DNA from: a virus
Taxonomy: Duplodnaviria; Heunggongvirae; Uroviricota; Caudoviricetes
Length of the DNA: 64,000 nt
Strand: one strand, 5' to 3'
Virus record (IMG/VR): IMGVR_UViG_2671180676_000004
Span: 2,122-66,121 of that record
Shown: positions 1 through 38,665 of the stretch, piece after piece
Layout: each line of letters begins with the position of its first letter
Numbering within the stretch: the stretch's first letter is position 1
Program-made: the position numbers and the translations under genes
Notes under the pieces: generated by a model
The model's database searches: none
Told to the model about the DNA's origin: nothing
What the model saw: the letters and a program-made list of their open reading frames with translations, nothing else

Positions 1-252
1 ATGGAAAATTTTCAAAGAAAGAGGCTGAAACCAATGGCCTACGTTCTCATTATAGTTTCACTGGCGACGGTAGCCGTTCCAGCCGGCCAGAGCCTTTTGA
101 TGCCGGGTTCATCCATCACCACACCTCCGTCGACGACAATTACCACCACTCCAGTAGAGCGTCCTGTCACTCTGGATGGGATGACGGTGGATGCGATACC
201 TCAAGTTCATCCAGTTACTCAGGATCATGCTGTGACTAAGGCGGTTGTATGA
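1..252 (+). CDS. hypothetical protein with Thr/Pro-rich tail; possibly truncated by window edge
   Basis: ORF begins at window base 1; hydrophobic N-terminal segment followed by TTPPSTTITTTP low-complexity stretch; no family recognised. Confidence 0.2.
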   Translation: MENFQRKRLKPMAYVLIIVSLATVAVPAGQSLLMPGSSITTPPSTTITTTPVERPVTLDGMTVDAIPQVHPVTQDHAVTKAVV

Positions 253-501
253 ACTGGTTTTCAAATCACTTTGGAAAAACTTGGCTGGCGATTCTGGCTT
301 TCATAGCTCTCATGGCCGCCGGTTGGGTATCGAACATTGTAAAACTCGTTTGCTCTGGTGATCTCCAGTTTCAGGCTGGTATGACCTTGGCTCGTGTTGT
401 TGGGATTTTTGTTTTTCCAGTCGGTTCGGTACTTGGTTATTTCTGACGGTTGTTAGTGCATATGCATTGACCGTCTTTTCGTAAGCAATTCATGTAACTA
501 G

Positions 502-516
502 AAAACAACTTGTTTT
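502..516. promoter_or_regulatory. palindromic operator-like site AAAACAA-C-TTGTTTT
   Basis: perfect 7-1-7 inverted repeat 24 bp upstream of ATG 540. Confidence 0.5.
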
Positions 517-539
517 AACAAATAACAAAAGGAAAGCAC

Positions 540-965
540 ATGTTAGGTTTATTCAAAAAGAAAACTCGTAAAGCTGTTATCGAGGTCAAAAAAATGGAGA
601 ACCGAGATGCGGTTGAAGCCACCGTGTGGGGCGCGTACATGATCTCCTATGCCGATGGCACATGCGACGCAAAGGAAATTTCCATTCTTGAGAAAACAAT
701 TGCAGCTCTGCCTGCGTTTTCTCCGTTTGCTGGTGAGATTGCCCAAATGAGCGCCAATATCCGTGCTCAATACGAAGCCTCACCGCGCCGCGCTAATGCC
801 CAGGCTTTACGTGAGCTGGCTGATGTGGCCGGGACTAATGATGCAGTAGATGTACTGTGTCTGTGCCTTGATATTGCCGACCAAGACGGTATTGGCGAAC
901 AAGAAGAGCTGGCCCTGAAAAAGATCGCACAGGCGCTTCAGTTGTCACTGGATGCTTATCTCTAA
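540..965 (+). CDS. TerB-like small acidic protein (tentative)
   Basis: 141-aa ORF; helical acidic protein resembling TerB-domain proteins; preceded by palindrome 502-516 and AGGAAAGCAC immediately before ATG. Confidence 0.35.
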   Translation: MLGLFKKKTRKAVIEVKKMENRDAVEATVWGAYMISYADGTCDAKEISILEKTIAALPAFSPFAGEIAQMSANIRAQYEASPRRANAQALRELADVAGTNDAVDVLCLCLDIADQDGIGEQEELALKKIAQALQLSLDAYL

Positions 966-1123
966 TGCTTGAGAGATTCCGGCTTGTGACCGTCATTGCT
1001 CTTCTGGTGATGGCGGTGTTGGTGGATTTTACGGGAAAGATGATGTCTGTCATTTCTGATGGCGTCCTCATTGGTCTGGCGATCTACTTCGCTTATCCGC
1101 TAGTCCGTAAAGCAACGTGTTAA
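965..1123 (+). CDS. small membrane protein (52 aa)
   Basis: ATG overlaps previous stop (TAATG); one hydrophobic helix (VTVIALLVMAVLV); followed by hairpin at 1128-1145; below the ORF-track length cutoff. Confidence 0.25.
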   Translation: MLERFRLVTVIALLVMAVLVDFTGKMMSVISDGVLIGLAIYFAYPLVRKATC

Positions 1124-1230
1124 TGACAAGGGCCAAATGGCCCTTGTGTTTCGTTGACCGAAATAGAGAGTTTGCACCTTTACGTTTAGCTTGCTCCCCT
1201 TTTATGCCACATCACAATAAAGCCAATAAG

Positions 1231-1245
1231 AAAACAACTTGTTTA
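1231..1245. promoter_or_regulatory. palindromic operator-like site
   Basis: AAAACAA-C-TTGTTTA 18 bp upstream of ATG 1263. Confidence 0.5.
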
Positions 1246-1262
1246 AGCATTAGGAAAAACAC

Positions 1263-1832
1263 ATGTGCAAGAAATGCAAAGCGATAGCTGATGAACAAAA
1301 CGCCTTATTCGAAGAAATGGATGCTAATGAACTGGTCAAAATGTTAGCCATTCTTCGAGGAATAGAAGACGTTTCCATATTTGAGAGAGTGGTTACAGCA
1401 CTTAATTTTGAGTCCACCTTTGAAGAGCCAACTCAGGTTGTAGCTTTAGCACATCATTTCGGTGTTCATTATCTTGCTGAAAAAGAGCGCGCTGATAAGT
1501 TGCAGGCGACTTTGGATATGGTGAGCGAGACTCAACGAACTGATGACACTAACAAGAGTGAGGCGATTATTGCCAGCAAAGATCGTGAAATTGCTGGGCT
1601 TAAATCCTCTCTAACGATGTTGATGTCTGCGTTCAATCTTATATCTTCTCAGGCGGGTTATAAAATGCCATCACTAAACAGCGATGATCCGATGGCCGTT
1701 CGTCAGCTTTTGGGAGCAATGGCCGACCAACTCGACGACACAAAGAGTCGGCTTGAAGACATGATGCGTGAGTTAAGCCATCGACATAACCTCGCAACAC
1801 AGCCACACAAAGCCTTTCAAAGCTCTAATTGA
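1263..1832 (+). CDS. hypothetical protein
   Basis: 189-aa ORF; palindrome 1231-1245 and AGGAAAAACAC before ATG, the same upstream module as at 540 and 62395. Confidence 0.4.
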   Translation: MCKKCKAIADEQNALFEEMDANELVKMLAILRGIEDVSIFERVVTALNFESTFEEPTQVVALAHHFGVHYLAEKERADKLQATLDMVSETQRTDDTNKSEAIIASKDREIAGLKSSLTMLMSAFNLISSQAGYKMPSLNSDDPMAVRQLLGAMADQLDDTKSRLEDMMRELSHRHNLATQPHKAFQSSN

Positions 1833-1887
1833 TCTGATATGGCCGCATGATCGGCCATATTGTGTTGATAAAAAACAAGGATGAAAA

Positions 1888-2169
1888 ATGGCATACGGTA
1901 CAGGGATTTACAACAATAAAGGAATTAACGTTACTGGCTTCCTTACTCCTATTTTTTTTCTTGATCGATTTACTGCGTCATCAGGCTCTAAGACGTACTC
2001 CAATCCGCCACCGGGTAAATCGCTACATGCCGTGTGGTCATTGATGCCTCTTAACAACGACAACTACATTAATTTACCTGTTCCAACAGTTACTATTAAT
2101 GGAAATACGGTTAGTTGGTCAAATTTATATACGGGGCTTGGTTCTTACATATACACATACTGGGGATAA
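1888..2169 (+). CDS. hypothetical protein (low-GC cassette)
   Basis: 93-aa ORF in visibly AT-rich segment; Gly/Asn/Thr-rich, beta-type composition. Confidence 0.3.
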   Translation: MAYGTGIYNNKGINVTGFLTPIFFLDRFTASSGSKTYSNPPPGKSLHAVWSLMPLNNDNYINLPVPTVTINGNTVSWSNLYTGLGSYIYTYWG

Positions 2170-2171
2170 TT

Positions 2172-2786
2172 ATGTTCGGGATGTCAATTACTCAATCAGA
2201 TGGAAGTTTGTGGATGAGTCCAGAATTTACTCCGCAAAATCTGATTAATAAAGGGACAATGTCTACATCTAAAGGTTCTGTTTTTCAAACATCAATCCCA
2301 TCAAACAAATCATGCTTTTTCTTCATAAAAAGCAGTAATAAGGCGAACATGATGTTTATTCATGAGCATAGTAACGGATACAATGCTCTCAGATTGCATC
2401 AGGTAAATGGTAGCCCCGGAACAATAACAGTTTATGCTTTTTCTGATATGGTGTTACCACATTCTGGCTATGGCATTGCCATGTATAACAGCGCAGGCGC
2501 AATGGTGTATCACGGTGAGATGATGCCCCTTGATGCGAAACTTATCACTATTTCTGACCCTCAATTTACAATAGATATGGGGTATCCATGTGCGGTAATG
2601 CCTGCTATGGTTGGGGTATATAACTATAGACGAACCGATTACGACAGACCTGTCTATGTAACAATGACAGGTGCAACTGAAAACCAAGTATATAACGGTC
2701 AATGGTATTCCGGTAATGTCACATGGGATATTAAGAAGATTTATACAAACAAAATTCTGGTGATAAATACCTCCAAGTATGATTAG
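2172..2786 (+). CDS. hypothetical protein (low-GC cassette)
   Basis: ATG at 2172 two bases after preceding stop; 204 aa; Asn/Gly/Tyr-rich; followed by 14-bp-stem hairpin at 2856-2893. Confidence 0.35.
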   Translation: MFGMSITQSDGSLWMSPEFTPQNLINKGTMSTSKGSVFQTSIPSNKSCFFFIKSSNKANMMFIHEHSNGYNALRLHQVNGSPGTITVYAFSDMVLPHSGYGIAMYNSAGAMVYHGEMMPLDAKLITISDPQFTIDMGYPCAVMPAMVGVYNYRRTDYDRPVYVTMTGATENQVYNGQWYSGNVTWDIKKIYTNKILVINTSKYD

Positions 2787-2889
2787 CCAATGCCTTTATT
2801 TGAAGGATTGCCTGTTTATTTCTATTTAGTACCTTTTCATTTTTGAAATAATTGCACCATTAAACAAATCACTTCTTAATGGTGCAATT

Positions 2890-3366
2890 ATGAATACAGC
2901 CCTTTCCATCATCGACGATGCCAACTCAAACACTGCTATCGACTATCGGCAGGAAATGAACGTCATCCACGAAATTGTGGCCGAGTGCGAGAAAGAGATC
3001 GCCTTCATGTATCAGGTACACGACTTCGTTTATGGCGACGAACGCCACAACATGATTAATCGCCTGCTGAGACTAAACCATCGACCAGATGAAGATCGCT
3101 CGCGTTTAAATCGAGGTTGGTTGGATAAAGTCGATCTGGAATGGGTGAAACAGAATATTTGGGCCGAGTACTGGAGGAAGGTCACGGACATGACTAACGT
3201 TTTGCTGATCATGCCAGCTTCCCGTCGTGACGAGTGGTATGAGCAATTTATCGAGGGCAAGCAGGAAGTCATCAAAACTGACAGAACCGGCTATCAGATG
3301 AAGGTTAAAGAGTTCGTTGGTGTACCTGAGTTCAAAGTGGATACAGACATCCCTACGATGGCTTGA
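2890..3366 (+). CDS. hypothetical protein
   Basis: 158-aa ORF; convergent with hsdR, only about 58 bp between the stops. Confidence 0.4.
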   Translation: MNTALSIIDDANSNTAIDYRQEMNVIHEIVAECEKEIAFMYQVHDFVYGDERHNMINRLLRLNHRPDEDRSRLNRGWLDKVDLEWVKQNIWAEYWRKVTDMTNVLLIMPASRRDEWYEQFIEGKQEVIKTDRTGYQMKVKEFVGVPEFKVDTDIPTMA

Positions 3367-3424
3367 TCTGACAGCTATCTGCAAATTGCACAGATATCTG
3401 CCAGATCTGGTTCAGATTAATACA

Positions 3425-6400
3425 CTATATCTGCCCACCTACTCCTTTGAACTTTTCAATAAACGTGACGATTTTCTGGAAAACCGTCTGTTTTTTCGTT
3501 TTATATTGCGGGTTTAACGGACTAAGTTTTGGTAATGTCTCGTTTAATTCTGTGCCATTTTCGGTGGCGTATTCGCGTTTTAAAGACGTGCGAATATAGC
3601 GTTTCGCCGCCTCTTCATTGAGATTTTCTTCTTTAATCAACGCTTCTGCTTCACGTAGCTGTTCGTGTTGAGCAAAGGTAAAGAACGCGTCAATGATGCT
3701 GGCTTTGTCTGGTAAATCATCCAGGTTCGTTTGCTGAATAAAATCGACCACCAGGCCCTCTTTAGCACGGTTCCCTAGGCTTGAACGAATTAAGCGTTTG
3801 ACCTCTTCGATCATTTCGCCCTTGCCTTTATTTTGTCTGTTGTGTTCGAAAATCAGTCCAAGGATATAATCCAGGTTTATTTCCTGAGACTTCAGCAAAT
3901 CGACCTCAAAAACTACGTCATCCCAGTCAGTGGTTGATTTCTCTTTTTTCTCAGCTTCTTTCTCACGGCGCTGCCAGTCGCGAATATCGTTATAGGCAGA
4001 ACGATAATCCTGAATCTTGCGATCAGCAGGGAGACGAATTGTTTGCAATTCAGCGAACTTTTCATCATCCACATAATGTTCTGCTTTGAATTTTTCTACC
4101 GCAACAGGATCGCTAAGATCGATTTGTTGCAGGGCTTTTAGCGTGGCAAATTCATCATAGTTTTGCAGGATGTTCTCGGCACGCAGGTATTCGCCAAACA
4201 GTTTAACGAAGTCTTTCTTCTCTTTTTCACTTTCAATACTGGCAGGGTCAGGGAACCGTTGTTCCAGTTCTGAAACTACTGCCATAAAGCCGCGTTTAGC
4301 TTCACCTGTAGCAGCATCAGTAAAGCCTTCCATATACTCTGCATAACTCTTTTCTAACACTACATTTTTGGTGTTTTTGTCACCAAACAGCGTTATGGCA
4401 TCGATGGTTGAGCGTTCCAGATCGCGGAAAGTGACGATATTACCGAAGGTTTTAGTCGCGTCATAAATGCGGTTGGTACGGGAAAATGCCTGCATCAGGC
4501 CGTGAAAACGCAAGTTTTTATCGACGAATAGCGTGTTTAATGTTGGAGCATCGAAGCCGGTTAAAAACATCCCCACGACGATTAACAAGTCAACATCCTG
4601 ATTTTTAACCCGCTGAGCCAGGTCCCGATAGTAGTTCTGAAAACCCTTGCTATCAGTGCTGAAATTCATTTGAAAATGGTCGTTATACTCACGAATTGCA
4701 GCGTCCAGAAACTCTTTAGCACTGCTGTCCATTGCACTGGTATCAAAAGATTCATCGGATATTTCACCAATGGCATTTTGTTCTTCATTAGCGGCAAAGG
4801 AGAAGATTGTCGCAACACGCAGTGGTTTATAGGTAGCAGATTTATTAGCTGCTTCCTCTTGTAACCGTTTAAACGTCGCGTAATAGGCTTTCGCGGCATC
4901 CACGCTGCTCACTGCCAACATAGCATTAAAACCTTTTGAGCCAGGGAAGGTACGGTGGGTTTTCTGGCGGAAATTATTCAGAATATATTGCGTGATTTCC
5001 TGAATACGCATGGGATGAAGAAACGCCTGCTGATTTTCAGCCGCACTCAGTTTTTTCTCGTCAGTTTCTGTCTCTAAAGACTTAAACTGTGGCCGCACAT
5101 CGTTGTAGTCCACCTTGAATTTGAGCACTTTTTCGTCACGAATCGCATCGGTAATTACATACGAATGCAATTCACGACCAAATACGCTGGCGGTTGTTTC
5201 TGAGCCTAAGGCGTTTTCCGGGAAAATAGGGGTGCCGGTAAAACCAAACTGATAATAACGTTTGAATTTCTTCTTCAGGTTTTTCTGCGCTTCTCCAAAC
5301 TGGCTGCGGTGGCATTCATCAAATATAAACACCACTTGCTGATTATATACAGGCAGGTCGCTTTCTGCTTTCATCAGGTTATTGAGTTTCTGAATAGTAG
5401 TGACGATAATTTTGTTATCGTCCTTATCCAGATTTCGTTTAAGGCCTGCGGTATTTTCCGAGCCGTTGACGCTGTCTGGCGAAAAACGCTGATATTCCTT
5501 CATGGTCTGGTAATCGAGGTCTTTCCTGTCGACCACAAAGAAGACTTTATCAATAAAGTCCAGCTCTGTTGCCAGACGCGCGGCTTTAAAGCTGGTGAGG
5601 GTTTTACCAGAACCGGTAGTGTGCCAGATATACCCACCGCTTTCCGGTTTTGACCAGTTCTTCGCTGTAAAGGAACTCTTAATTTTCCACAGAATGCGCT
5701 CGGTGGCGGCAATCTGGTACGGTCGCATCACCAGTAGCGTCTGACTACTGTCAAAAACGCTGTAGTTCACCAGAACATTCAGCAGAGTATGTTTCTGGAA
5801 AAAGGTAGCGGTAAAGTCTTTGAGGTCTTTAATCAGCGTGTTGTCTGATTTCGCCCAATTCATGGTGAAGTCAAAACTGTTTTTATCGCGCTTTGTGGTG
5901 TTGGCAAAATAACGGGTATCAGTGCCGTTGGAAATGACGAACAGCTGCAGATACTTAAACAGGGAATTTTCGCTGTTAAAACTCTCTTTACTGTAACGAT
6001 GTATCTGGTTGAAAGCCTCACGAATCGCCACCCCGCGTTTTTTTAGTTCGATTTGCACCAGCGGTAAACCATTAACCAGGATCGTGACGTCATAACGGTT
6101 AGCATGAGAACCCGTCTGTTCAAACTGCTGGATAATCTGCACCTTATTGCGCATGAGATTCTTTTTATCTATCAAATAGATGTTCTCAAGTCGCCCGTCG
6201 TCAAAAATAAAGTCGCAGATATAGTCGATATGGATTTTACGGGTTTTATCCAGAATACCATCGCTGGGGTTGTCCAGATACTGCTCCGTGAAGCGCCGCC
6301 ACTCGCTGTCATTAAACATCACACCATTGAGGCTCTGAAGCTGTTCCCGAACATTGGACAGCATTGCCGACTGTGATTTTACGGAAATAAATTCATAACC

Positions 6401-6541
6401 CTGATTCCGCAGGTCCTGAATCAGTTCACGTTCCAGGTCCGATTCGCTCTGGTAGCTGTCGCTTGTTTGCTCAGCTTTGATGTACTTATCAAGGACGATA
6501 AAGTTATTGGATTCAGCAATGGTGTGTGTTTGATGAGTCAT
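3425..6541 (-). CDS. hsdR: type I restriction enzyme R subunit (type IC, EcoR124I-like)
   Basis: 1038-aa ORF; SF2 helicase motifs (TGSGKT Walker A, DECH box); last gene of minus-strand M-S-R order; length typical of type IC HsdR. Confidence 0.9.
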
Positions 6542-6663
6542 AGCGCATCCTTTGTGCCGCCTGGCAAGAGCCGGAAGGGCGTTAAGAGTGACTTCCGGCG
6601 CGTAAAAAAATAGTCTATATACTGACCGGGTGTTAAGGTGGCCCGATCGGTAGCAATGGTCAA

Positions 6664-7902
6664 TTAATTACTGACAGTTTCAGGTTTCGGGAAACTGAAC
6701 AGTAAATCACGGTAGTATTCGTATTGTTTCTGGCGCAACTCGATTTCACGCGGGAGACCTTCGGTGATGGAGTTGGTCAGGGTGTCGAATTTATCGAGCA
6801 GAGCAGATATTCGCTCTTGTTTCTGTTTATCAGGCAATGGCACTGGTAATGTTTTTATAATATCTGCATTCAAGTTACTGACCGACCCGCTATTGATTTT
6901 ACTTTCCCAATAATTTTTCACCTTTTTTGATGAAAGATAGTGATACAGATAATCAGCATTTAATTTTTCACCAAAATTGCTGATTGATGCCCATCCATCA
7001 TGGATAGCTCCGGTTATCCTTAAAATATATGGTCTGCCAAAGCTCATAGAGTTAGAAATGACGAAATCACCGGGGTTCAAGATTCGCGATTTTTGGGCAC
7101 CCTCTGCAGTTATTTTTTGTAAGGTTTTGTCAATGTATTTAGAGCCGGGGATAGTATCTCCGATTTTAATCCATGGGATACCATTTCCTTGTTCAGTAAG
7201 ATAATTAACAATTGGCCTGGGGGATGCCCCACGTTGTATTTTGGCTACTTCTCCCAATGCCTTCCACTCAACCTCACCCTCTTTAAAACTCAGCAACTGG
7301 TCGCGATAGTAGTTGTACTGTTTTTTACGCATGTTAAGCTCAGCGGTAAGCTCAGCGGTAAGTGCAGTAAACTTATCCAGAATCCGAACAATTTCAGACT
7401 GGATGGCAAGGGATTTTCCCGGGGCGCTGGGACAAGGGATGGGTATTTGATAGTTTAAAATTGCATCTTTACTGCCTCGAGGCATCTTTGCCCCTTTAGC
7501 GTGCTGCATACTGTAAGAAAAAAATGAATCCGACGATAATGCATAGTAGAGATATTCTGGACTAATAATTTTTTTACAGTCTGCTAAAATGCGTATAGCA
7601 AGGACATCACCACTGCACCCGCCATTATTCTCCGCCATCCAAACTTTCTTTAAATATGGGCGAATATTACCTAAAAGAATATCACCTGGCTCATAGGCAG
7701 TTAAACGTGCCGTATTAGGCTGATAGGTGGCGTCAATGCGACCGCCTTTATCAGCAAGGAGATTATCAACGCCAACGAATGAAGTGGCATCAAGTTTATC
7801 AGCATCAACTTTGGTTGTTGAATACCCGGCGATATCGCCCACTGCTTTCCACTCAACCTCAACCCCATCCAGCAATTTTTCCAGATAACTCAACTCGCTC
7901 AT
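6664..7902 (-). CDS. hsdS: type I restriction-modification specificity subunit (type IC)
   Basis: 412 aa; two target-recognition domains separated by conserved central region containing TAELTAEL and followed by conserved C-terminal region ending [13 protein letters not shown]; start overlaps hsdM stop. Confidence 0.85.
7337..7360. repeat. 12-bp tandem duplication (2 copies) encoding TAEL-TAEL in hsdS central region
   Basis: AGCTCAGCGGTA repeated at 7337-7348 and 7349-7360. Confidence 0.85.
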
Positions 7903-9461
7903 TTCTGCACCTCGCAGCCTTCAATTTCAGCCACAATCGCATCAATATCTTTACGCAACTGGTCGATTTTGCTGACCGTGGTTTTCAGCTCTGCATTCAA
8001 CTCAGCGATATCGATAATTTCGCGAGTATCTTTCACTTCAACATAGCTGCTCACCGACAGGTTATAGTCATTAGCAACAACAGTCTCAAACGCAACAGAT
8101 TTCGCCAGATGAGCAACATCTTCCTTGCTGGCAAATACCTGCATAATTTTTTCTATATGGGCATCGGTCAGAATGTTGTTGTTAGTCTCTTTTTTGAACA
8201 GTTCGCTGGCATCAATAAACTGAACTTTGGTATCCGTTTTATGTTTAGACAGCACCAGAATATTGACGGCAATGGTGGTGCCAAAGAACAGGTTCGGTGC
8301 CAGTGAAATCACGGTTTCGACATAGTTATTGTCAACCAGATACTGACGGATTTTCTGCTCCGCGCCGCCACGGTAAAAAATGCCCGGGAAGCAGACAATC
8401 GCAGCACGACCTTTGGCAGAAAGATAGTTCAGCGCATGTAATACAAACGCAAAGTCAGCTTTGGATTTGGGGGCCAGAACGCCAGCCGGGGCAAAACGTT
8501 CATCGTTAATCAGCGTCGGGTCATCGCTGCCAATCCATTTCACCGAATACGGCGGGTTAGAAACGATGGCATCAAACGGTTTTTCATCTCTGAAGTGCGG
8601 CTCAGTCAGCGTATTGCCCAGCTTGATATCAAACTTGTCGTAGTTGATGTTGTGCAAAAACATGTTCATACGCGCCAGGTTATAGGTCGTATGGTTGATC
8701 TCCTGACCGAAAAAGCCTTCTTCGATGATGTGGTCATCGAACTGCTTTTTCGCCTGCAACAACAGCGAACCGGAACCTGCTGCCGGGTCGTAGATTTTGT
8801 TAACGTGGGTCTGGCCGTGCATTGCCAATTGTGCAATCAGCTTAGAGACGTGCTGCGGTGTAAAGAACTCGCCGCCTGACTTACCAGCATTCGCGGCATA
8901 GTTAGAAATCAGGAACTCATAGGCATCGCCGAACAGGTCAATCTGATGTTCGTTGAAGTCACCAAGTTTTAACCCTTCAACCCCTTTCAGAACCGCAGCC
9001 AGGCGGGCATTTTTATCTTTAACGGTGTTACCCAGGCGGTTACTGGTGGTATCGAAATCAGCAAACAAACCTTTGATGTCAGCTTCTGAAGGATAACCGT
9101 AAGCAGAACTTTCGATAGCAACGAAGATGCTGTTTAAATCTGCGTTCAGTCTGTCATTGGTATTTGCTTTCGCCGCTACGTTGCAGAAAAGCTGACTGGG
9201 GTAGATGAAGTAGCCTTTAGTTTTGATGGCATCGTCTTTAATGTCATCAGTAATTACGCTGTCATCCAGTTTCGCATAACAGATACTGTCATCACCGGCT
9301 TCAATATAGCTGGAAAAATTTTCGCTGATAAAACGGTAGAAAAGTGCGCCCAGAACGTATTGCTTAAAATCCCATCCATCGACCGAACCCCTGACATCGT
9401 TAGCAATTTGCCAGATTTGACGATGAAGCTCTGCACGTTGTTGAATACTTGTCATTTTCAT
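7899..9461 (-). CDS. hsdM: type I restriction-modification DNA methyltransferase subunit
   Basis: 520 aa; N6-adenine methyltransferase motifs (NPPY at the catalytic site, AdoMet-binding DPAAGSGS); first gene of operon. Confidence 0.9.
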
Positions 9462-10587
9462 CCACTTATTTCAGGCTTATGTAATTGGCGGTGATTCTAC
9501 AGCAACTTGGATGCTTTAGCAGTTCGGACATTAGGCAACGAATGACCTAATTAGAGCTTTTTGGAAAAGCGGTATTGTCGGTGCGATGATAGCTATGTTT
9601 GGGTGCGCGATGGTGCAATACAATGACGGTGAAAAGGTAAGCATCCAGTCTGATGGCTGGTATGGGCTGGATAGCCTGCAAAAAACCGCAGATAAAGCCT
9701 GTCAGCAATATGGAAAGTCTAAAGCCGTATATCAGCATAGCGCGAACGCTAATCCACATCTCGCGCCCGGCACGGGCGTTCAGAACACTATTTGGAAATG
9801 CGAACCATAACGCAGGTTGGCTTTTTACATCTTGGGCCGAATACTGATTCCGCGCTAAGTTGTTTGTGCGGAAGTGACACTGTGGAGCTTAGAAATAGTA
9901 AATACTGGTGGGCAACAAATTGAGCCTTCACACGCTCACCAGCACACACAAAAAATGGTTAAACAGCAAGGGAATTAATATCTCATCGCGACATTAAATA
10001 AGCCAGCGCACGCCTCTGTTTATCACTGACTTGAAAAACCATATCAGAACCACGATGAAGACAATCGCCAGCACTTGGCTAAGAACAGGCGCATTTAAAA
10101 ATGCACTTAGAAACTGAAAAAATACAATCATCAGGGTAATCCTCGTCTAATGTAAAGCTGTGTGCTCTCACGTTGACGTAGAAACCCAACCTCTATATAG
10201 TTGGATTCGGTGAAAGAAAGTCGTTAACGTGAACTTACGGCACATGTTTTCGGTATAAAAATCAGGGAACTGTGAATTCCTTGATGTAGTTGGGGCCTGT
10301 AATGCAGGCCCTATCTATTAATGTCATGATTACATCTCAAATTTTCTCCTTATCATTATTATTTAATAAAATTCAATTAATATAATATCCATTTCCTGTG
10401 TGTGCAAACACAGTATGAGGAAAATGGCCCCGTTGCAAGTGCATAACTTTGTGGATAACTCTGAAGGCGAATTTACATTTCGGCGCACCGCAAGCCAGAT
10501 AAGCTGTGCGCAAAAAGCAATGGGGTGAGAAAAAAACTTTGAAGATATTGCGGCGACTAAATAATAGCCGTTATTCAATTATTCTGG

Positions 10588-10851
10588 ATGGGATTTAATA
10601 TGAACGAATGGAACATAGCAGCCAAAAGCCAGGAAGAAAGGAATAAAGTTAACGTTGACCTGGCTGCCAGGGGGGTTGCCTACAAAGAGCGATTGAACAT
10701 ACCCGTCATAGCGGAACAGGTAGCCCGTGAGCAACCTGAGAACCTGCGCACCTATTTCATGGAACGGCTACGGCACTACCGGCAGTTAAGCCTCCTGCTG
10801 CCAAAAGGAAACGATCCGGTATATCAGAAAGAAGATATAGCCAAAAAATAA
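10588..10851 (+). CDS. hypothetical small protein
   Basis: 87-aa ORF (alternative ATG at 10600) directly upstream of UmuD'-like gene; no family recognised. Confidence 0.3.
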
Positions 10852-10949
10852 CGCGCCACCAGGCGAGCGCAAAGCATCGCGCTATTGCACACTTCAAGCA
10901 TCTTTAATGTATACTGTATGGATAAACAGTACTCTGAGGTGAAAACGCT

Positions 10950-11339
10950 ATGGGCTTCCCTTCTCCTGCGGCGGATTATGCTGAGAGTCGTATTTCTCTT
11001 GATCAGCAGATAATTAGACATCCTTCAGCGACCTACTTCTTGAGGGCAGCTGATAGTCATCATCGTGAGGGAATATTACAGGGTGCATTGCTGGTGGTCG
11101 ATTCCTCACTTACCCCGGTTGATGGTTCTCTGCTTGTATGCGCTCTGGATGGGGAATATCGCGTAAAAAGATACCGGAAGTATCCACGTCAGCATCTGGA
11201 GGATTTGAGAACCGGTAAGAAGGAAGCATTGCCAAAGGATGACGATGGATGCACGGGCAGCAATGCCGTGTTTGGTGTGATCACTCACATTATCAACGAC
11301 GCAAGAAGTGGCGAGTTTGATGATTGTCCCGTGATGTAG
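10950..11339 (+). CDS. UmuD'-like S24-family peptidase, naturally lacking the N-terminal cleavable segment
   Basis: 129 aa beginning M-GFPSPAADY, the sequence that follows the Cys24-Gly25 self-cleavage site in E. coli UmuD; candidate Ser (ADSH) and Lys (RVKRY) dyad positions retained; no umuC partner adjacent. Confidence 0.6.
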   Translation: MGFPSPAADYAESRISLDQQIIRHPSATYFLRAADSHHREGILQGALLVVDSSLTPVDGSLLVCALDGEYRVKRYRKYPRQHLEDLRTGKKEALPKDDDGCTGSNAVFGVITHIINDARSGEFDDCPVM

Positions 11340-11375
11340 GAGAACTGATTAGGCGGTGCAATGCACCGCCTTTTA

Positions 11376-12476
11376 TCACACTGCGCGGAATGCGATCTCG
11401 CCAGGTATTACTTCGCCTTGCCAATACATTTGGGCAGCAACGCGATCTGCGAGGTCACGATAAATAGCCGTAAATTCGCTATCTGGACGACTAATAACGG
11501 TTGGTGTTCCGTTATCCAGATCTTCACGAAGAGAGATATGAAGTGGCATTTGGCCTAACAACTGCGTGTTGTATTTCTCGGCCAGTTTCTGTGCGCCACC
11601 GGTGCCAAAAATTGGCTCGTGATGACCGCAGTTACTGCAAATATGCACACTCATGTTTTCGACGATACCCAGTACCGGCACTTCGACTTTTTCGAACATC
11701 ACAATGCCTTTCTTCGCATCGATCAGCGCGATGTCTTGCGGCGTAGTTACCACAACCGCACCAGTTACAGGAATGTTCTGCGCCAGCGTCAACTGAATAT
11801 CACCAGTGCCCGGCGGCATATCGAGAACGAGATAGTCCAGATCAGGCCATAGAGTTTCCTGCAACATCTGCATCAGCGCCTTGCTGGCCATCGGTCCACG
11901 CCACACCATTGCATTGTCGTCGGTGACCAGATAACCAATAGAGTTGGTTGCCAGGCCATGAGACATGATAGGTGCCATGTGAGTACCGTCCGGTGAGGTT
12001 GGACGTTGGTTTTCCGCGCCCAGCATGGTTGGAATTGATGGACCATAGATATCGGCATCCAAAATACCAACTTTCGCACCTTCAGCAGCCAACGCCAGTG
12101 CCAGGTTTACCGCCGTGGAGGATTTACCCACGCCGCCCTTGCCTGAGCTGACGGCGATAATGTTCTTAACGCCATTAATGCCTGGTTGGTTTTTGACGCG
12201 CTTAAGCGTGGCAATGTTGTACGACAGCTTCCAGTCAATAGCCTTTGCGCCAGTGATACGGAGCAGATCACCACTACATTGCTCTTTCAGGTCTTCAAAA
12301 GGCTTATTCCACACGAAAGGCATGATTAGTTCGACATGCAGTGTGTCATCCATCAACGCAACATGGTGTAACGCTTTAAGCGTAGTCAGGTTGTGTTTCA
12401 GGGTTGGGTGCTGAAAATTAGCCAGCGTACCGGCTACCATTGCTCTCAGGGCATCCGGCGATTTGGACTCGCTCAT
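11376..12476 (-). CDS. apbC: Fe-S cluster carrier ATPase ApbC/Mrp
   Basis: 366 aa; P-loop GKGGVGKS; CxxC pair; divergent from metG as in Escherichia chromosomes. Confidence 0.9.
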   Translation of the reverse strand: MSESKSPDALRAMVAGTLANFQHPTLKHNLTTLKALHHVALMDDTLHVELIMPFVWNKPFEDLKEQCSGDLLRITGAKAIDWKLSYNIATLKRVKNQPGINGVKNIIAVSSGKGGVGKSSTAVNLALALAAEGAKVGILDADIYGPSIPTMLGAENQRPTSPDGTHMAPIMSHGLATNSIGYLVTDDNAMVWRGPMASKALMQMLQETLWPDLDYLVLDMPPGTGDIQLTLAQNIPVTGAVVVTTPQDIALIDAKKGIVMFEKVEVPVLGIVENMSVHICSNCGHHEPIFGTGGAQKLAEKYNTQLLGQMPLHISLREDLDNGTPTVISRPDSEFTAIYRDLADRVAAQMYWQGEVIPGEIAFRAV

Positions 12477-12633
12477 CCCGTCTCCTTTATTTTAATTTGC
12501 GCAATTGTCGCCTTGTAGTGTACTCCAGCTACGACATTTAATCATTTATGAGAAATGCTGTTATCACATGGCAGACATAAGGCCATTTTGTTACTATCAA
12601 GCCCCTTTTCACTACAAAGAAGTAATGCCTACT

Positions 12634-14667
12634 ATGACCCAAGTCGCGAAGAAAATTCTGGTGACGTGCGCGCTGCCGTACGCTAACGGCTCAATCCACC
12701 TCGGCCATATGCTGGAGCACATCCAGGCTGATGTCTGGGTTCGTTACCAGCGAATGCGCGGCCACGAGGTTAATTTCATCTGTGCCGACGATGCCCACGG
12801 TACGCCGATCATGCTGAAAGCACAGCAGCTTGGTATCACACCGGAGCAGATGATTGGCGAAATGAGTCAGGAACACCAGACTGATTTCGCAGGCTTTAAC
12901 ATCAGCTATGACAACTATCACTCGACGCACAGCGAAGAGAACCGTCAGTTGTCTGAGCTTATCTATACTCGCCTGAAAGAGAACGGTTTTATTAAAAACC
13001 GCACTATCTCTCAGTTGTACGACCCGGAAAAAGGCATGTTCCTGCCGGATCGTTTTGTAAAAGGCACCTGCCCGAAATGTAAAGCGCCAGATCAATACGG
13101 CGATAACTGTGAAGTCTGCGGCGCAACATATAGCCCGACTGAATTGATCGAGCCGAAATCGGTGGTTTCTGGCGCTACCCCGGTAATGCGTGATTCCGAA
13201 CACTTCTTCTTTGATCTACCTTCTTTCAGCGAAATGTTGCAGGCATGGACCCGCAGCGGCGCGTTGCAGGAGCAGGTGGCGAACAAAATGCAGGAATGGT
13301 TTGAATCCGGCCTGCAACAGTGGGATATATCCCGCGATGCGCCTTACTTCGGTTTTGAAATTCCGAACGCGCCGGGCAAATATTTCTACGTCTGGCTGGA
13401 CGCGCCGATTGGCTACATGGGTTCCTTCAAGAATCTGTGCGACAAGCGCGGCGATACCACCAGCTTCGATGAATACTGGAAGAAAGACTCCACCGCCGAG
13501 CTGTACCACTTCATCGGTAAAGATATTGTTTACTTCCACAGCCTGTTCTGGCCTGCCATGCTGGAAGGCAGCAACTTCCGCAAGCCGACCAACCTGTTTG
13601 TTCATGGCTATGTGACGGTGAACGGCGCGAAGATGTCCAAGTCTCGCGGCACCTTTATTAAAGCCAGCACCTGGCTGAATCATTTTGACGCTGACAGCCT
13701 GCGTTACTACTACACTGCGAAACTCTCTTCGCGTATTGATGATATCGATCTCAACCTGGAGGATTTCGTTCAGCGTGTGAATGCCGATATCGTTAACAAA
13801 GTGGTTAACCTGGCGTCCCGTAACGCTGGCTTTATCAATAAGCGTTTTGACGGTGTGCTGGCAGGCGAACTGGCTGACCCGCAACTGTATAAAACCTTCA
13901 CTGATGCTGCTGAAGTGATTGGTGAAGCATGGGAAAGCCGCGAATTTGGTAAAGCTATCCGTGAAATCATGGCATTGGCTGACCTGGCTAACCGCTATGT
14001 CGATGAACAGGCTCCGTGGGTGGTGGCGAAGCAGGAAGGACGCGATGCCGATCTGCAGGCGATTTGCTCTATGGGCATTAACCTGTTCCGCGTGCTGATG
14101 ACGTACCTGAAGCCGGTACTGCCGAAACTGACTGAACGTGCAGAAGCATTCCTGAATACAGAACTGACCTGGGATGGTATCCAGCAACCGCTGCTGGGCC
14201 ATAAAGTGAATCCGTTCAAGGCACTGTATAACCGCATCGATATGAAGCAGGTTGAAGCACTGGTGGAAGCATCCAAAGAAGAAGTGAAAGCCACAGCCGC
14301 ACCGGTAACTGGCCCACTGGCTGACGACCCGATTCAGGAAACTATCACCTTTGACGACTTCGCCAAAGTTGACCTGCGCGTGGCGCTGATTGAAAACGCA
14401 GAGTTTGTAGAAGGTTCTGACAAACTGCTTCGCCTGACGCTGGATCTCGGTGGTGAAAAGCGTAATGTCTTCTCAGGCATCCGTTCCGCTTATCCAGATC
14501 CACAGGCACTGATTGGTCGTCACACCATTATGGTGGCTAACCTGGCACCACGTAAAATGCGCTTCGGTATCTCTGAAGGCATGGTGATGGCTGCTGGCCC
14601 CGGCGGGAAAGATATCTTCCTGTTAAGCCCGGATGCTGGTGCTAAACCTGGCCACCAGGTTAAGTAA
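12634..14667 (+). CDS. metG: methionine--tRNA ligase
   Basis: 677 aa from ATG 12634 ([26 protein letters not shown]); HIGH-type and KMSKS motifs; zinc knuckle CPKC...CEVC; C-terminal tRNA-binding domain; intrinsic terminator at 14690-14713. Confidence 0.95.
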
Positions 14668-28899: not shown

Positions 28900-28914
28900 T
28901 AAACAAGTTGTTTT
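28900..28914. promoter_or_regulatory. palindromic operator-like site
   Basis: TAAACAA-G-TTGTTTT upstream of ATG 28954. Confidence 0.45.
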
Positions 28915-28953
28915 AGAGCGCATGGACGCGCTCTGTGTGTTTTAGAGGGATCT

Positions 28954-29586
28954 ATGACGGTCGAAAAAGACGAGGTAAAAACTCGCCTGACACCAGCGGA
29001 GTGGGCCGAAGCTGAAGCCAAATGGACGTCAGGCGAATATACACTCTCAAAGCTGGAGGAAGAGTACGGCATTCGTCGTGAAACACTCTCCAGACATTTC
29101 AAAAAGCGAGGATTAGAGAAAGGCGCGGACTCTGTTGGGAAGATGGTTCGTGAGTCTCTTAAATCTGACGCAGAGCTTCGCGCTAAAGCCCGTGCGGAAA
29201 AGATAGAAGAACGTCGTACACGTTATGACGGCTGGGCGTATGCGTTGGGGCAGATGGTGATGGTCGAAGTCACTACGGCCAAACGTGAGGGTAAGCCTTT
29301 AGGGGCGATTGAGGATTCTCTCAAGAGCTTACAGAGAGCCAGTAATACCCTTGCAAAATGCTTTGAAGTTTCGTCCAAAGCATTGGGCATGGATCATGCG
29401 GAAAATGACGAGGAAGAAATTCCGAACCTGGTATTTGGTGAGCTTACGCCTTCCCAGGTGGCGAAATTACGTCAGGAAGACGACGAGCCTGAAATCATCG
29501 ATGACGAATTGCTTGAGACGTTGGAAGAAGAAGCTCTAAGCGAATTTGATGCGACAGATGATGGAAGTGAAGGGGAGGACGAATAA
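28954..29586 (+). CDS. terminase small subunit (putative)
   Basis: 210 aa directly upstream of and overlapping terminase large subunit; acidic C-terminus; two palindromes (28875-28889, 28900-28914) upstream. Confidence 0.5.
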   Translation: MTVEKDEVKTRLTPAEWAEAEAKWTSGEYTLSKLEEEYGIRRETLSRHFKKRGLEKGADSVGKMVRESLKSDAELRAKARAEKIEERRTRYDGWAYALGQMVMVEVTTAKREGKPLGAIEDSLKSLQRASNTLAKCFEVSSKALGMDHAENDEEEIPNLVFGELTPSQVAKLRQEDDEPEIIDDELLETLEEEALSEFDATDDGSEGEDE

Positions 29587-30842
29587 TGGCAATCCCGTCC
29601 TCGCTCAGTCTTGTGCAACTGCATTCTGGACAGATGAAAGTCTTCCAGTCTCCGCATCGATTTAAAGTTGTTTGTGCTGGTCGACGCTGGGGAAAATCCC
29701 GGTTGTCGATCTCCACTATTATTCGTGCGGCGGCAAAGGAAAAAAAGCAAAGGGTCTGGTATGTCGCTCCTACTTACCAGATGGCTCGCCAGATTTTGTG
29801 GGACGATCTACAGGAAGTTCTGCCTCGTAAGTGGGTTAGGAAAAAGAACGACACCACGATGACAATCGTGTTGAAGAACGGTTCGGAGATCGCCCTCAAA
29901 GGTGCTGATAAGCCTGACACTCTGCGCGGCGTAGCGTTGCATTTTGTAGTGCTTGATGAATTTCAGGATATGAAGGCTGACACCTGGTACAAGGTGTTAC
30001 GACCTACTCTTTCATCGACACGCGGCGGTGCACTGATCATTGGTACGCCAAAAGGTTTCTCGGAATTTCACAAACTGTGGACTATAGGCCAGAACGTAGA
30101 GCTGCAAAGAAAGGGACAGTGGAAGAGCTGGCAGTTTGTAACTGCCGATTCTCCGTTTGTGCCTACGGCGGAAATTGAAGCTGCTAAGAACGATATGGAC
30201 CCGAAATCGTTCGCTCAGGAGTACCTGGCGAGCTTTGAGAACATGTCCGGGCGCGTTTACTACCCGTTCGATCGTAACGTGCATGTAAAACCGCTTCAGT
30301 TCAACCCTCGGTTGCCTATATGGGTAGGGCAGGACTTCAACATTGACCCGATGTCTTCAGTAATTTTGCAACCTCAGCCAAATGGTGAGCTATGGGCAAT
30401 TGATGAATTGGTGCTCTTTTCCTCTAACACGGCAGAGGTTTGTGATGAGCTTGAGAGACGCTTCTGGCGCTGGAAATCACAGATAACGGTATTTCCAGAT
30501 CCGGCAGGTGCTTATCGCCAACATGCTCGCGGGGAGTCTGACGTCGACATATTCAAAGAGAAGGGATTCTTACGTGTCGATTATTCGAAAAAGCACCCGC
30601 CAATTGCGGATCGTGTTAATGCTGTTAACCGAATGCTGATGACCGCATCTGGAGATATCCGGTTGTATATCGATCCGAAGTGCAAGCATTTGATTGATTC
30701 ACTGGAAAAAGTCATCTACAAGCCTGGAACACGAGATATGGATAAGACAGGTGGCATTGAGCATAGTGCAGACGCATTGGGCTATCCAGTACATCGTAGG
30801 TATCCAGTCAAAAACCGTGTTATTCTTGGTGGTTCTCGATAG
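29586..30842 (+). CDS. terminase large subunit
   Basis: 418 aa; Walker A-like CAGRRWGKS; Walker B-like VVLDEF; position before portal. Confidence 0.85.
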   Translation: MAIPSSLSLVQLHSGQMKVFQSPHRFKVVCAGRRWGKSRLSISTIIRAAAKEKKQRVWYVAPTYQMARQILWDDLQEVLPRKWVRKKNDTTMTIVLKNGSEIALKGADKPDTLRGVALHFVVLDEFQDMKADTWYKVLRPTLSSTRGGALIIGTPKGFSEFHKLWTIGQNVELQRKGQWKSWQFVTADSPFVPTAEIEAAKNDMDPKSFAQEYLASFENMSGRVYYPFDRNVHVKPLQFNPRLPIWVGQDFNIDPMSSVILQPQPNGELWAIDELVLFSSNTAEVCDELERRFWRWKSQITVFPDPAGAYRQHARGESDVDIFKEKGFLRVDYSKKHPPIADRVNAVNRMLMTASGDIRLYIDPKCKHLIDSLEKVIYKPGTRDMDKTGGIEHSADALGYPVHRRYPVKNRVILGGSR

Positions 30843-30868
30843 GTAAGTAATTATCTAAGGTTATTCAA

Positions 30869-32443
30869 ATGGAATTGAACGACAAACAAATTAAGGATCT
30901 GGTGGCGCGACGCCACCCGGAATACGAAAAGAAAAAAGAACATTGGGACTTCCTCGCCAGCACTTACGCTGGCGGGCGTGGTTGGTTTACAGACAATATC
31001 TTTCGTTACTTTAAAGAGGGAGATCAGGAGTTTAAGGAGCGAGTTGAACGTGCTTATCGCTTCAACCACACTCGTGAGGTGGTAAACCTCATCAACAAAT
31101 ATCTCTTTAAAGAAGACATTCATAGAAATATCGAAGAGGCACCAGAGCAGATCCGCAATTTCTGGAAACGTGCGACTCGCCAGAATGCCTCTATTGACTC
31201 ATTTATGGCCGCTATTGATTTGCAGTCGTCTATTTACGGTCGCATATGGGTTGTTGTCGATAGCACGATGAGTGGTGATGTTGAGTCAGTAGCTGACGAG
31301 AAAAAGAAAGATGCTCGCGCCTACGCCTACTGGATTTCACCTCAGCAAATGCTGGATGTGGCATGGGACGACGACGGGAATATGTTGTGGGCGTTAATTG
31401 TGGAAGTCGCTCGTGATGACGCAGATCCTTTTACTTCTACAGGTCAGGAATACCAACGTTATCGTCTGTGGACACAAAACGAGTGGTATCTGTTCCGTGA
31501 GGAAGTGAAGAAGGGCGCTGGTGGAGCAGGTCGCCGTCAGGCAAAAGTTATTTTAGAGGATAGCGGTGAGCATAATCTCGGCGTAGTTCCTGTGTTTCCT
31601 GTTGATTGTATTGGAGAAAGTGAATCACCGTATTTCAGCCCATCGTTGATCGATGATATCGCTTATCTTGATCGTGCGGTTGCAAACTATCTGTCAAACC
31701 TTGATGCCATTATTCAGGATCAGACATTTAGCCAGTTGGCTATACCGGTACAGTCGCTTTTACCTGGTGATGAAAACCACACTAAAGTGCTTGAAATGGG
31801 CACAAAGCGAGTCTTCACCTACGATTCTGAAGGTGGAAACCAGCCGTTTTATCTGTCACCAGACCCGAAACAAGCTCAGATGATCATCACTACGATTAAG
31901 ACGGTGATTAACGAAATCTACCATTCAGTTGGTGTAGCTGGTGAGCGAACGAAGCAGGACAACGCACAGGGAATCGATAATTCATCTGGTGCCGCAAAAA
32001 TGTATGACTTCCAGCGTGTAAATAGCTTGCTTGTCACAAAAGCAGAGCGTCTGGAAAGGGCTGAACGCCAAATCATGCTACTGGTTGCGAAATGGATGGG
32101 GGTAGATCTGGACGAAGACCACTCTTTAATTGCGTATCCAGAAAGTTTCGATATTCGTGGCCTTACTGATGAATTTTCTGTTGCCGAGAAACTGTCATTA
32201 CTTCAGGCACCGGACTCTGTACGTCGTCACCAGATGGAAATGCTTATTGAGAAGATTTTCCCGAACATTACTGAGGCGATGAAAAAGGAATTTGATAAAG
32301 ATCTCTTGAATTTTCCTCCAAAAAATGATCTAAATACCCTTGAAAATAAGTCAGTACTTACTTATGATCGTGGTGCAGCCCAAGAAAGCGGGCAAGATCA
32401 ACCCCGAGGGAATGGGGACTCATCTACTCAAGAGAACGAGTGA
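30869..32443 (+). CDS. portal protein
   Basis: 524 aa following terminase; size and position typical of siphovirus portal. Confidence 0.7.
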   Translation: MELNDKQIKDLVARRHPEYEKKKEHWDFLASTYAGGRGWFTDNIFRYFKEGDQEFKERVERAYRFNHTREVVNLINKYLFKEDIHRNIEEAPEQIRNFWKRATRQNASIDSFMAAIDLQSSIYGRIWVVVDSTMSGDVESVADEKKKDARAYAYWISPQQMLDVAWDDDGNMLWALIVEVARDDADPFTSTGQEYQRYRLWTQNEWYLFREEVKKGAGGAGRRQAKVILEDSGEHNLGVVPVFPVDCIGESESPYFSPSLIDDIAYLDRAVANYLSNLDAIIQDQTFSQLAIPVQSLLPGDENHTKVLEMGTKRVFTYDSEGGNQPFYLSPDPKQAQMIITTIKTVINEIYHSVGVAGERTKQDNAQGIDNSSGAAKMYDFQRVNSLLVTKAERLERAERQIMLLVAKWMGVDLDEDHSLIAYPESFDIRGLTDEFSVAEKLSLLQAPDSVRRHQMEMLIEKIFPNITEAMKKEFDKDLLNFPPKNDLNTLENKSVLTYDRGAAQESGQDQPRGNGDSSTQENE

Positions 32444-32464
32444 TAAGTAACAAAGGGAATTTTT

Positions 32465-33352
32465 ATGAAACTGTGGCAAATGCTTTTGGCCCGTCGTGGT
32501 CTGATGGATGTTGCTGAAGCGCATGAGCGTGGGGGCGCTGGCGGTGTAGCTGCTGATAATGAGCAGAGTACACAAGATCCTGACAAGCAGGGTGAACAAA
32601 AAGAGCAGCCGAAGGGTGATGACGAATACGCTGGCATGACTCATGAAGAGTTACTGGCCGAACTTCGCAAAACCAAGAAAGCTGGTGCTGAACTGCTGAA
32701 AGAGAACATGAAGCGCAAAGAGAAAGAGCGCACATTGGCCGATCAGCTTGCTCAGTACGGTGAAATCGACCCGGCGCGTGCTCGCCAGCTTTTAGAAGCT
32801 GAACAGGCCGCAGAAAACGCACGTCGTGAGGCGGAGCAAGCTGAACTGGAGCGTCGTGGTGAGTTCGATGCTGTTAAAAAACAGATGATCGAAGCACACC
32901 AGGCAGAGCTGGCACAGCGTGACGAACGTTATGCAGCACTGGAAAGTGAAAACGCATCACTGAAATCTCAATTAGTCGAGATGACCGTGGGCGCTTCCTT
33001 CAGTAACTCTCTCTTCCTACGTGACAAAGTTCTGATGACTCCGGCAAAAGCCCGCGTGATCTACGGTTCTCATTTTGAAGTGGGTGAAGACGGTAGCGTA
33101 GTGGGTTATGACAAACCGGCAGGTCATAAAGAACGAGCTGTTCTGGTTGACGGTGAAGGTAAGCCGTTGCCGTTTGAATCCGCGATTGAACGCATTGTGC
33201 GGGCAGATCCGGAAGCTGACGCATTGATGCGTAGCGAAGCCAAGCAGGGTGTAGGCTCACATTCCAAATCGACCTACACAATATCCCAACCGAAGAACAA
33301 GTCGACTATGGATAAGTTGGCCTCCGGTCTGGGGAAAATTGGACTTAAGTAA
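32465..33352 (+). CDS. scaffolding protein (putative)
   Basis: 295 aa, highly charged Ala/Glu/Lys/Arg-rich predicted coiled coil between portal and capsid genes. Confidence 0.5.
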   Translation: MKLWQMLLARRGLMDVAEAHERGGAGGVAADNEQSTQDPDKQGEQKEQPKGDDEYAGMTHEELLAELRKTKKAGAELLKENMKRKEKERTLADQLAQYGEIDPARARQLLEAEQAAENARREAEQAELERRGEFDAVKKQMIEAHQAELAQRDERYAALESENASLKSQLVEMTVGASFSNSLFLRDKVLMTPAKARVIYGSHFEVGEDGSVVGYDKPAGHKERAVLVDGEGKPLPFESAIERIVRADPEADALMRSEAKQGVGSHSKSTYTISQPKNKSTMDKLASGLGKIGLK

Positions 33353-33377
33353 CATCTAAATCAAAGGGAATTGATAG

Positions 33378-34253
33378 ATGCCATTACTGCGTGAAGAAGC
33401 TGAAAAGCTGTCTAACAACGAACTTGAACAGGGCGTGATTGAAACCATCATCGATCGCGATGACCTGTTTGCCATCCTGCCTTTTATGAAAATTACTTCA
33501 AAGGCATATCTGTACAACCGTGAAAAAACGCTGAGTGAAGCTACCTTCATCGACGTTAACGACACCATCCCGGAAGGTGCAGCAACCTTCGAAGAATGCG
33601 TTGCGAAACTGCGTATTCTGGCTGGTGACGTAGACGTTGATAAATTCCTGGCAACCACTATGGCCGACACCAATAACCAGTTGGCTATTCAGGTTCGTCA
33701 GAAAGTTAAAGGTCTGGCTCGTGCGTTCCGTCGCAATCTGATTTTGGGTGACTCCAGCACCAACAACAAAGCGTTTGACGGCATTCCACGCCTGATGCAC
33801 GCAGATCAGAAGATCGATATCGCCGGTGCATCTATGACTTTCTCTATGTTCGACGAACTGGTCGATGCGGTGAAAGATCTTGGTGCTGACTGCATCATGA
33901 TGCGTTCAGAGCACCTTCGTGCTTACCGTGCGCTGCTGCGTACAGTAAACGTAGGTCCGTCTGAAATCATGATGGAGAACTTCGGTCGTCCGATGCTGTG
34001 TCATAACGGCGTTCCGTTCATCATCAACGACTTCATCCCGACTGATTCTGGCAAAGCAAGCATCTACTGCTTGCATCTGTCAGAAGAGAACGGCGTTACT
34101 GGTCTGTATGGCGGCGATAACGCAGGTATCGTTGTTGAAAACATTGGTACTGTACAGAACAAAGACGCAGTACGTACCCGTGTGAAGTGGTACTGCTCTC
34201 TGGCGAATAAGCACGATAAGGCTATCGCTGCACTGACCAATGTAAAAATTTAA
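33378..34253 (+). CDS. major capsid protein
   Basis: 291 aa after scaffold; strong intrinsic terminator 34285-34313 downstream, as expected for a highly expressed capsid gene. Confidence 0.65.
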   Translation: MPLLREEAEKLSNNELEQGVIETIIDRDDLFAILPFMKITSKAYLYNREKTLSEATFIDVNDTIPEGAATFEECVAKLRILAGDVDVDKFLATTMADTNNQLAIQVRQKVKGLARAFRRNLILGDSSTNNKAFDGIPRLMHADQKIDIAGASMTFSMFDELVDAVKDLGADCIMMRSEHLRAYRALLRTVNVGPSEIMMENFGRPMLCHNGVPFIINDFIPTDSGKASIYCLHLSEENGVTGLYGGDNAGIVVENIGTVQNKDAVRTRVKWYCSLANKHDKAIAALTNVKI

Positions 34254-34284
34254 TCAGTGTAGTAGATAAGTAGTTATCTATGTT

Positions 34285-34313
34285 AAAGGGTGGGCTATAC
34301 GCCCACCCTTTTT
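34285..34313 (+). terminator. intrinsic terminator after major capsid gene
   Basis: AAAGGGTGGGC-tatac-GCCCACCCTTT followed by TTG. Confidence 0.7.
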
Positions 34314-34326
34314 GTAGGAGCGAGAA

Positions 34327-35247: not shown

Positions 35248-35291
35248 CCGATATTGGGCGGCTTTCGCCGCCCAAGTGGAGAGAAAGCGTT

Positions 35292-36559: not shown

Positions 36560-36638
36560 CGCCAGTCGCATTATTTACTTTTGGTCGAAAGGTTTTTTGG
36601 CCAGTAATGAGAGCGACCGACAACAACAGGGAGAGAGC

Positions 36639-37447: not shown

Positions 37448-37448
37448 T

Positions 37449-37832: not shown

Positions 37833-37906
37833 CTCAATTGGTAAGTATATACTTACTATTAGCGCAATGAATGCGTAGAATTAACGGAAAAAGGAGTTTT
37901 CCATCA

Positions 37907-38653: not shown

Positions 38654-38665
38654 TCAGTAATTAAG

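Follow-up and report, generated by a model that had tools for sequence, protein, structure and literature searches.

A two-copy TAEL linker in the HsdS subunit of a type IC restriction-modification system on a probable SSU5-family phage-plasmid

The window, i.e. the entire stretch of 64,000 nucleotides of viral DNA analyzed here, carries the three hsd genes of a type I restriction-modification system on its minus strand in the order hsdM-hsdS-hsdR; the short overlap of hsdM and hsdS couples the translation of hsdS to that of hsdM (Table 1). The hsdS gene has already been annotated in RefSeq. Membership of the type IC family rests on sequence, complementation and antibody cross-reaction, of which sequence was the criterion applied here. 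Both large subunits are homologous to those of EcoR124, because HsdR aligned with EcoR124 HsdR over 1038 of 1038 residues (2260 bits) and HsdM with the EcoR124 M protein over all 520 of 520 residues (1156 bits), while the EcoR124_C domain is present at HsdR. The HsdS protein carries two Methylase_S domains (Pfam), and the solved structure that matches it best is that of the EcoR124 specificity subunit (PDB 7bst_A, E 4e-82). The alignment with 7bst_A displayed near-identity in the N-terminal, central and C-terminal conserved regions, whereas both target recognition domains (TRDs) have diverged. Tetra-amino-acid repeats (TAEL, LEAT, SEAL or TSEL) in the central region are regarded as a hallmark of type IC HsdS proteins (PMC10030836), and the window protein combines the three conserved regions with the sequence TAELTAEL at this place. 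Hence, the end-to-end matches of hsdM and hsdR, the conserved regions of HsdS and the gene layout indicate an intact type IC system. The promoter-like site between hsdS and hsdR may perhaps represent a separate hsdR promoter; in the promoter and terminator scan of the hsd locus, promoter-like sites were no more common than in shuffled sequences.

Table 1. Features of the hsd locus in the window and expanded TAEL arrays in chromosomal E. coli hsdS genes (positions in the last three lines refer to the loci named there)
Feature	Position	Strand	Remarks
hsdR, restriction/translocase/nuclease subunit	3425..6541	-	1038 aa; Pfam HSDR_N, SWI2_SNF2, T1R_D3-like, EcoR124_C
hsdS-hsdR intergenic region	6542..6663	-	122 bp; one promoter-like site, 6636..6607
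hsdS, type IC specificity subunit	6664..7902	-	412 aa; start overlaps hsdM stop by 4 nt
C-terminal conserved region, helix D2, with stop codon	6664..6822	-	~residues 361-412; identical to EcoR124 HsdS in alignment
TRD2, C-terminal target recognition domain	6823..7260	-	~residues 215-360; approximate boundaries; diverged from EcoR124
Central conserved region, helix D1 of coiled coil, holds repeat	7261..7446	-	~residues 153-214, approximate; stretch identical to EcoR124 HsdS in alignment
12-bp tandem repeat	7335..7362	-	coding-strand unit ACCGCTGAGCTT, 2.3 copies; encodes TAELTAEL
TRD1, N-terminal target recognition domain	7447..7845	-	~residues 20-152; approximate boundaries; diverged from EcoR124
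hsdM, N6-adenine methyltransferase subunit	7899..9461	-	520 aa; Pfam N6_Mtase + HsdM_N
Chromosomal E. coli hsdS, 8 TAEL units	L002 1565-1660
Chromosomal E. coli hsdS, 5 TAEL units	L003 1564-1623
Chromosomal E. coli hsdS, 4 TAEL units	L004 1564-1611

The exact 12-bp tandem duplication that had been predicted at 7337-7360 was borne out, with positions 7337-7348 and 7349-7360 of the plus strand both reading AGCTCAGCGGTA. The periodic tract recognized by Tandem Repeats Finder is slightly longer (period 12, 100% match). Read in frame on the minus strand, the unit corresponds to the codons ACC GCT GAG CTT and gives rise to TAELTAEL at HsdS residues 182-189; these codons occupy 7336-7359, so that 7337-7360 represents the identical tract with a shift of one base. 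The 12-bp unit of hsdS is the same as the DNA unit of EcoR124, the latter read off mutagenesis primers quoted in PMC10644984. No second exact tandem duplication of 8-15-bp units exists in the 64 kb, and chance would yield 0.005 such duplications per window according to shuffles and 0.004 according to an analytic estimate. The only other tandem array found by Tandem Repeats Finder in the whole window is situated at 30618-30645 within the open reading frame 29586..30842 (14-bp unit, 2.0 copies, 85% match). Regarding the protein, the distance from F to the RKKQY motif, read from the sequence, comprises 13 residues in helix D1 with its two TAEL copies compared to 17 in helix D2, i.e. both helices would be of equal length with three TAEL copies.

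Two small length differences were observed elsewhere in close relatives of the window HsdS. The near-identical protein P0002 (414 aa) contains an additional EG, giving KEGEGEV at the site where the window protein has KEGEV (residues 207-211, ~7270-7284). The corresponding window DNA, GAGGGT GAGGTT, forms an imperfect 6-bp tandem, and the KEGEV site may thus be a second small slippage-prone spot directly after helix D1. Protein P0003 (407 aa), encoded on the metagenome contig OOCO01000339.1 (L006), is devoid of the TRD1 residues ADCKK (107-111; ~7570-7584 in the window) and otherwise identical.

The element carrying this locus was compared over positions 1-12000 and 28900-44000 of the window. 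Positions 1-12000 are 100% identical to the E. coli plasmid pUTAK-6-1 (111 kb, non-mobilizable), and 35 plasmids cover at least 80% of the same segment at 96-98% identity, with the matches breaking at the TRDs where hsdS was compared directly. The structural genes at 28900-44000 share 98-99% identity with the Escherichia phages CMS-2020a and Cyrano and 81% with Salmonella phage SSU5. Together, the plasmid match and the structural-gene identities identify the replicon, as far as judged from sequence, as an SSU5-family phage-plasmid of E. coli. The occurrence of restriction-modification systems on SSU5-type phage-plasmids has been reported earlier (bioRxiv 10.1101/2025.09.12.675607). The window also harbors the host-like genes apbC (11376-12476) and metG (12505-14667), and, as annotated in RefSeq for the identical plasmid, the region separating the hsd genes from apbC contains two genes, one DNA polymerase III theta-like (10588-10851), the other coding for an S24 (UmuD/LexA-like) peptidase (10950-11339).

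The functional meaning of the TAEL repeat is well documented for the prototype, and EcoR124I and EcoR124II have been known since 1989 to owe their different spacers to the number of repeats. The statement in the original prediction that these two enzymes possess two versus three TAEL repeats, whose number sets the spacer, is accurate, because EcoR124I with two copies recognizes GAA N6 RTCG and EcoR124II with three copies GAA N7 RTCG (PMC3874165). The change between the two was put down to unequal crossing-over at the 12-bp repeat, three copies are also found in EcoDXXI and EcoprrI, and hybrids with altered repeat number showed targets shifted as predicted (PMC3874165). The methylated adenines are located 7 nt apart with two TAEL copies and 8 nt apart with three (PMC3874165). 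It is this distance, and not the N-number as written, that is fixed by the copy number. Hence, the refutation initially proposed for the repeat, namely a methylation motif whose spacer does not match the two-repeat state, needs to be reworded. [quoted passage not shown]

A comparison of repeat copy number in related strains had been suggested, and variation was indeed found across the family. Among the 114 nearest relatives with a scorable repeat, 108 contain two copies, four contain three and two contain one copy; the one-copy alleles adjoin full-length hsdM and hsdR genes. The central region was detected in 1216 records of complete E. coli genomes. The copy number in these records was inferred from the alignment spans as record span minus query span, a measure that was verified by fetching four loci, in which arrays of 8, 5, 4 and 3 units were confirmed. 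An even-step sample of 60 of the 1216 records comprised 32 two-copy, 25 three-copy and one five-copy arrays as well as two partial matches, corresponding to ~55% two-copy and ~43% three-copy records. A census by BLAST identity bands with synthetic one-, two- and three-copy queries was dropped, because alignments split at large gaps and identity therefore stays high at any copy number. Longer arrays exist in E. coli, with at least 16 five-copy, at least six four-copy and at least two eight-copy records. The IMG/VR contigs with these flanks include 18 two-copy and six three-copy cases and no array of four or more copies. The census with one genome per species yielded a single match, Mixta tenebrionis with two copies, which is too few to be useful. 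Both the two-copy and the three-copy state are common among intact loci, and the TAEL repeat is a conserved feature of the whole family that is not special to the window.

Direct evidence for gain and loss of units came from six natural cases, in which alleles are identical outside the repeat and differ in copy number (1/2, 2/3 and one 3/4/5 series). Four isogenic pairs, 100% identical on either side of the repeat, are found among the proteins, P0010 (three copies) with P0006 (two), P0017 (one) with P0012 (two), P0021 (three) with P0019 (two), and P0082 (one) with P0036 (two); a fifth pair stems from IMG/VR, L010 with two and L017 with three copies. Modules of the window protein are involved in several of them: P0010, P0017 and P0082 carry its TRD1, L010 and L017 its TRD2. 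The remaining series consists of the E. coli loci L005, L004 and L003 with three, four and five copies, respectively, and flanks that are 100% identical over 220 bp upstream and 1500 bp downstream. L004 and L005 share an IS3 insertion, hence the unit change occurred inside one lineage. The hsdS repeat is thus an in-gene tandem repeat with a unit number that changes in isogenic relatives, a feature also of contingency loci. In L032 (3664-7227), a one-copy TAEL allele with the window TRD1 was found beside a Phd antitoxin/Fic-domain gene pair and other phage-like genes, and L032 may be a P1-like phage-plasmid.

In contrast to the family, the window allele itself appears invariant. Its exact protein sequence (P0121) is present on 40 contigs with two copies, and the closest variants P0001, P0002 and P0003 are all two-copy, differing by a point change, the EG insertion or the five-residue TRD1 deletion. 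A pattern anchored in its own TRD1 and TRD2 and designed to match one to three copies gave no match in viral contigs and one contig, with two copies, in metagenomes, too few matches for variants to show up. In total, two copies occur in all occurrences found of the window allele, i.e. ~47 contigs, one complete plasmid (NZ_CP157149.1) and one metagenome contig (L006). Accordingly, the comparison of related strains showed a copy number that varies family-wide and stays at two in every occurrence found of this allele, so that the variation typical for a contingency locus was seen among the relatives and in none of the window-allele occurrences. The idea that gain or loss of a unit shifts the specificity is supported by the natural changes in isogenic family alleles, but a copy-number variant of the window allele was not found.

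Of the 120 protein clusters nearest to the window protein, 69 contain its TRD1 half (94-100% identical), combined with many different TRD2 partners and with one, two or three TAEL copies. Its TRD2 half was found in 28 of these clusters and is located behind two copies in L010 and three in L017. HsdS is strongly modular, and TRD shuffling appears to be a bigger source of specificity diversity than the repeat number.

We consider it very probable that the tract in helix D1 represents the canonical TAEL linker of an EcoR124-family HsdS, in its two-copy state within an intact locus, which sets the spacer of the target and switches unit number rarely, on an evolutionary scale; the link between copy number and spacer is here taken from the literature, while the repeat, its frame, the family, the intact operon and the natural gain and loss of units were read from the sequences at hand. 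According to this model, each 12-bp unit would move the two TRDs apart by four residues, slightly more than a helical turn, and the linker length would determine the distance between the half-sites of the bipartite target, with 7 nt between the methylated adenines at two copies and 8 nt at three. Misalignment of the two identical units, either by replication slippage or by unequal crossing-over, would lead to in-frame gain or loss of one unit, making D1 four residues longer or shorter and the spacer one base longer or shorter, with both half-sites kept. The two units and 4 nt of additional periodicity provide ~16 nt of out-of-register homology, hence the switching rate should be low in a two-unit array. 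From the general behaviour of short-repeat misalignment we infer that RecA-independent slippage would be no less likely than unequal crossing-over, the mechanism named in the literature. The six lineages that changed copy number with unchanged flanks imply that repeat units are gained or lost at a rate at least roughly equal to the substitution rate summed over the flanks, far above the substitution rate per site. The window allele probably behaves like the rest of the EcoR124 family in this respect, with rare switching on an evolutionary scale, and its invariance and small array argue against fast phase variation, for which no evidence emerged.

The expanded arrays permit a somewhat different view. 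All three inspected arrays of more than three copies are situated in damaged loci, in which hsdM is annotated without its N-terminus or IS1 or IS3 is inserted in hsdS. These examples, only three in number, suggest that selection holds working systems at two or three copies, and array expansion may follow inactivation of the locus. Together with the six copy-number changes without flanking substitution, the arrays of four, five and eight units in the inspected damaged loci could be taken to mean that the TAEL array is much more mutable than its two-copy look implies, with purifying selection keeping working systems at two or three copies, a reading that we regard as rather unlikely. If the array was that mutable, phage-plasmids could make spacer-shifted specificities often enough to matter against sibling elements and phages.

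A more far-reaching alternative would be a true contingency locus, at which high-frequency switching in clonal populations provides bet-hedging of the phage-plasmid versus other phages or sibling elements. Classical contingency loci contain many more repeat units than the two present in the window, and this reading is also difficult to reconcile with an allele that is invariant in all of the occurrences listed above. It could be argued in its favor that the copy number shifted in six natural cases while up to 1.7 kb of flanking sequence stayed free of substitutions, so that unit indels arise no more slowly than substitutions accumulate across those flanks, and that expansions to 4, 5 and 8 units are known; however, the inspected expanded arrays sit in loci with IS insertions or truncated hsdM, for which relaxed selection is a better explanation than programmed switching. 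Altogether, a contingency locus is very unlikely.

The opposite assumption, that the repeat is only a constant structural element of the coiled coil without practical role in specificity change, and that a unit change in the window allele would result in an inactive or self-toxic enzyme, seems highly improbable as well. The invariance of the window allele would agree with it, and tolerance of the helix register is not obvious, because the two-copy D1 is already 4 residues shorter than D2 and it is unclear how the coiled coil accommodates the length change (PMC3874165). However, EcoR124I/II and the EcoDXXI hybrids were active at both linker lengths (PMC3874165), intact loci commonly show either two or three copies, and the TRD1 and TRD2 modules of the window occur with other copy numbers in intact operons. 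Finally, chance or an assembly artefact as origin of the repeat is practically ruled out by the chance expectation of ~0.005 per window, the identical tract in an independent complete plasmid and 40 contigs, and its conservation across the family.

Returning to the reading as canonical linker, the window repeat is the long-known defining linker of type IC enzymes in its common two-copy state, with nothing unusual in itself and with a mechanism that was already known. A one-unit change would nevertheless provide the restriction system of the phage-plasmid with a new target while its DNA-reading domains remain unchanged, and the new target would alter which incoming DNA is cut as well as the methylation pattern of the host and the phage-plasmid. 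The present analysis makes modest additions to this picture, namely the copy-number census, in which one-, four-, five- and eight-copy alleles are rare, and the natural isogenic pairs, which show that the switch recurs in the wild.

The known systems closest to the window locus include the type IC prototype EcoR124I/EcoR124II from plasmid R124. Gene order is the same, HsdR (1038 aa) and HsdM (520 aa) align over their entire length, the conserved regions of HsdS are near-identical, the 12-bp unit ACCGCTGAGCTT occurs in both, and the copy number of two corresponds to EcoR124I. However, both TRDs differ from those of EcoR124, hence the half-sites and thereby the target differ, and the carrier is probably an SSU5-family phage-plasmid instead of plasmid R124. 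EcoDXXI and EcoprrI belong to the same family and follow the same TAEL linker principle, but they have three copies compared to two in the window (PMC3874165). EcoprrI has, moreover, prrC inserted in its operon, whereas the window locus is without prrC and only 122 bp separate hsdS from hsdR. In the type IC system NgoAV of N. gonorrhoeae, the number of a tetra-amino-acid repeat likewise sets an N6 or N7 spacer, as confirmed by PacBio sequencing (PMC6789123); it differs from the window system in the repeat, LEAT instead of TAEL, in the host, and in the additional use of a homopolymer frameshift that truncates HsdS. Finally, phase-variable type I hsdS genes driven by simple sequence repeats (Atack et al., PMC7383803) resemble the window gene in having a tandem repeat between the TRDs that can alter specificity. 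These loci display long simple-sequence tracts, high switching rates and mostly frameshifts, whereas the window hsdS has two 12-bp units, an in-frame change and no within-allele variation in the occurrences found.
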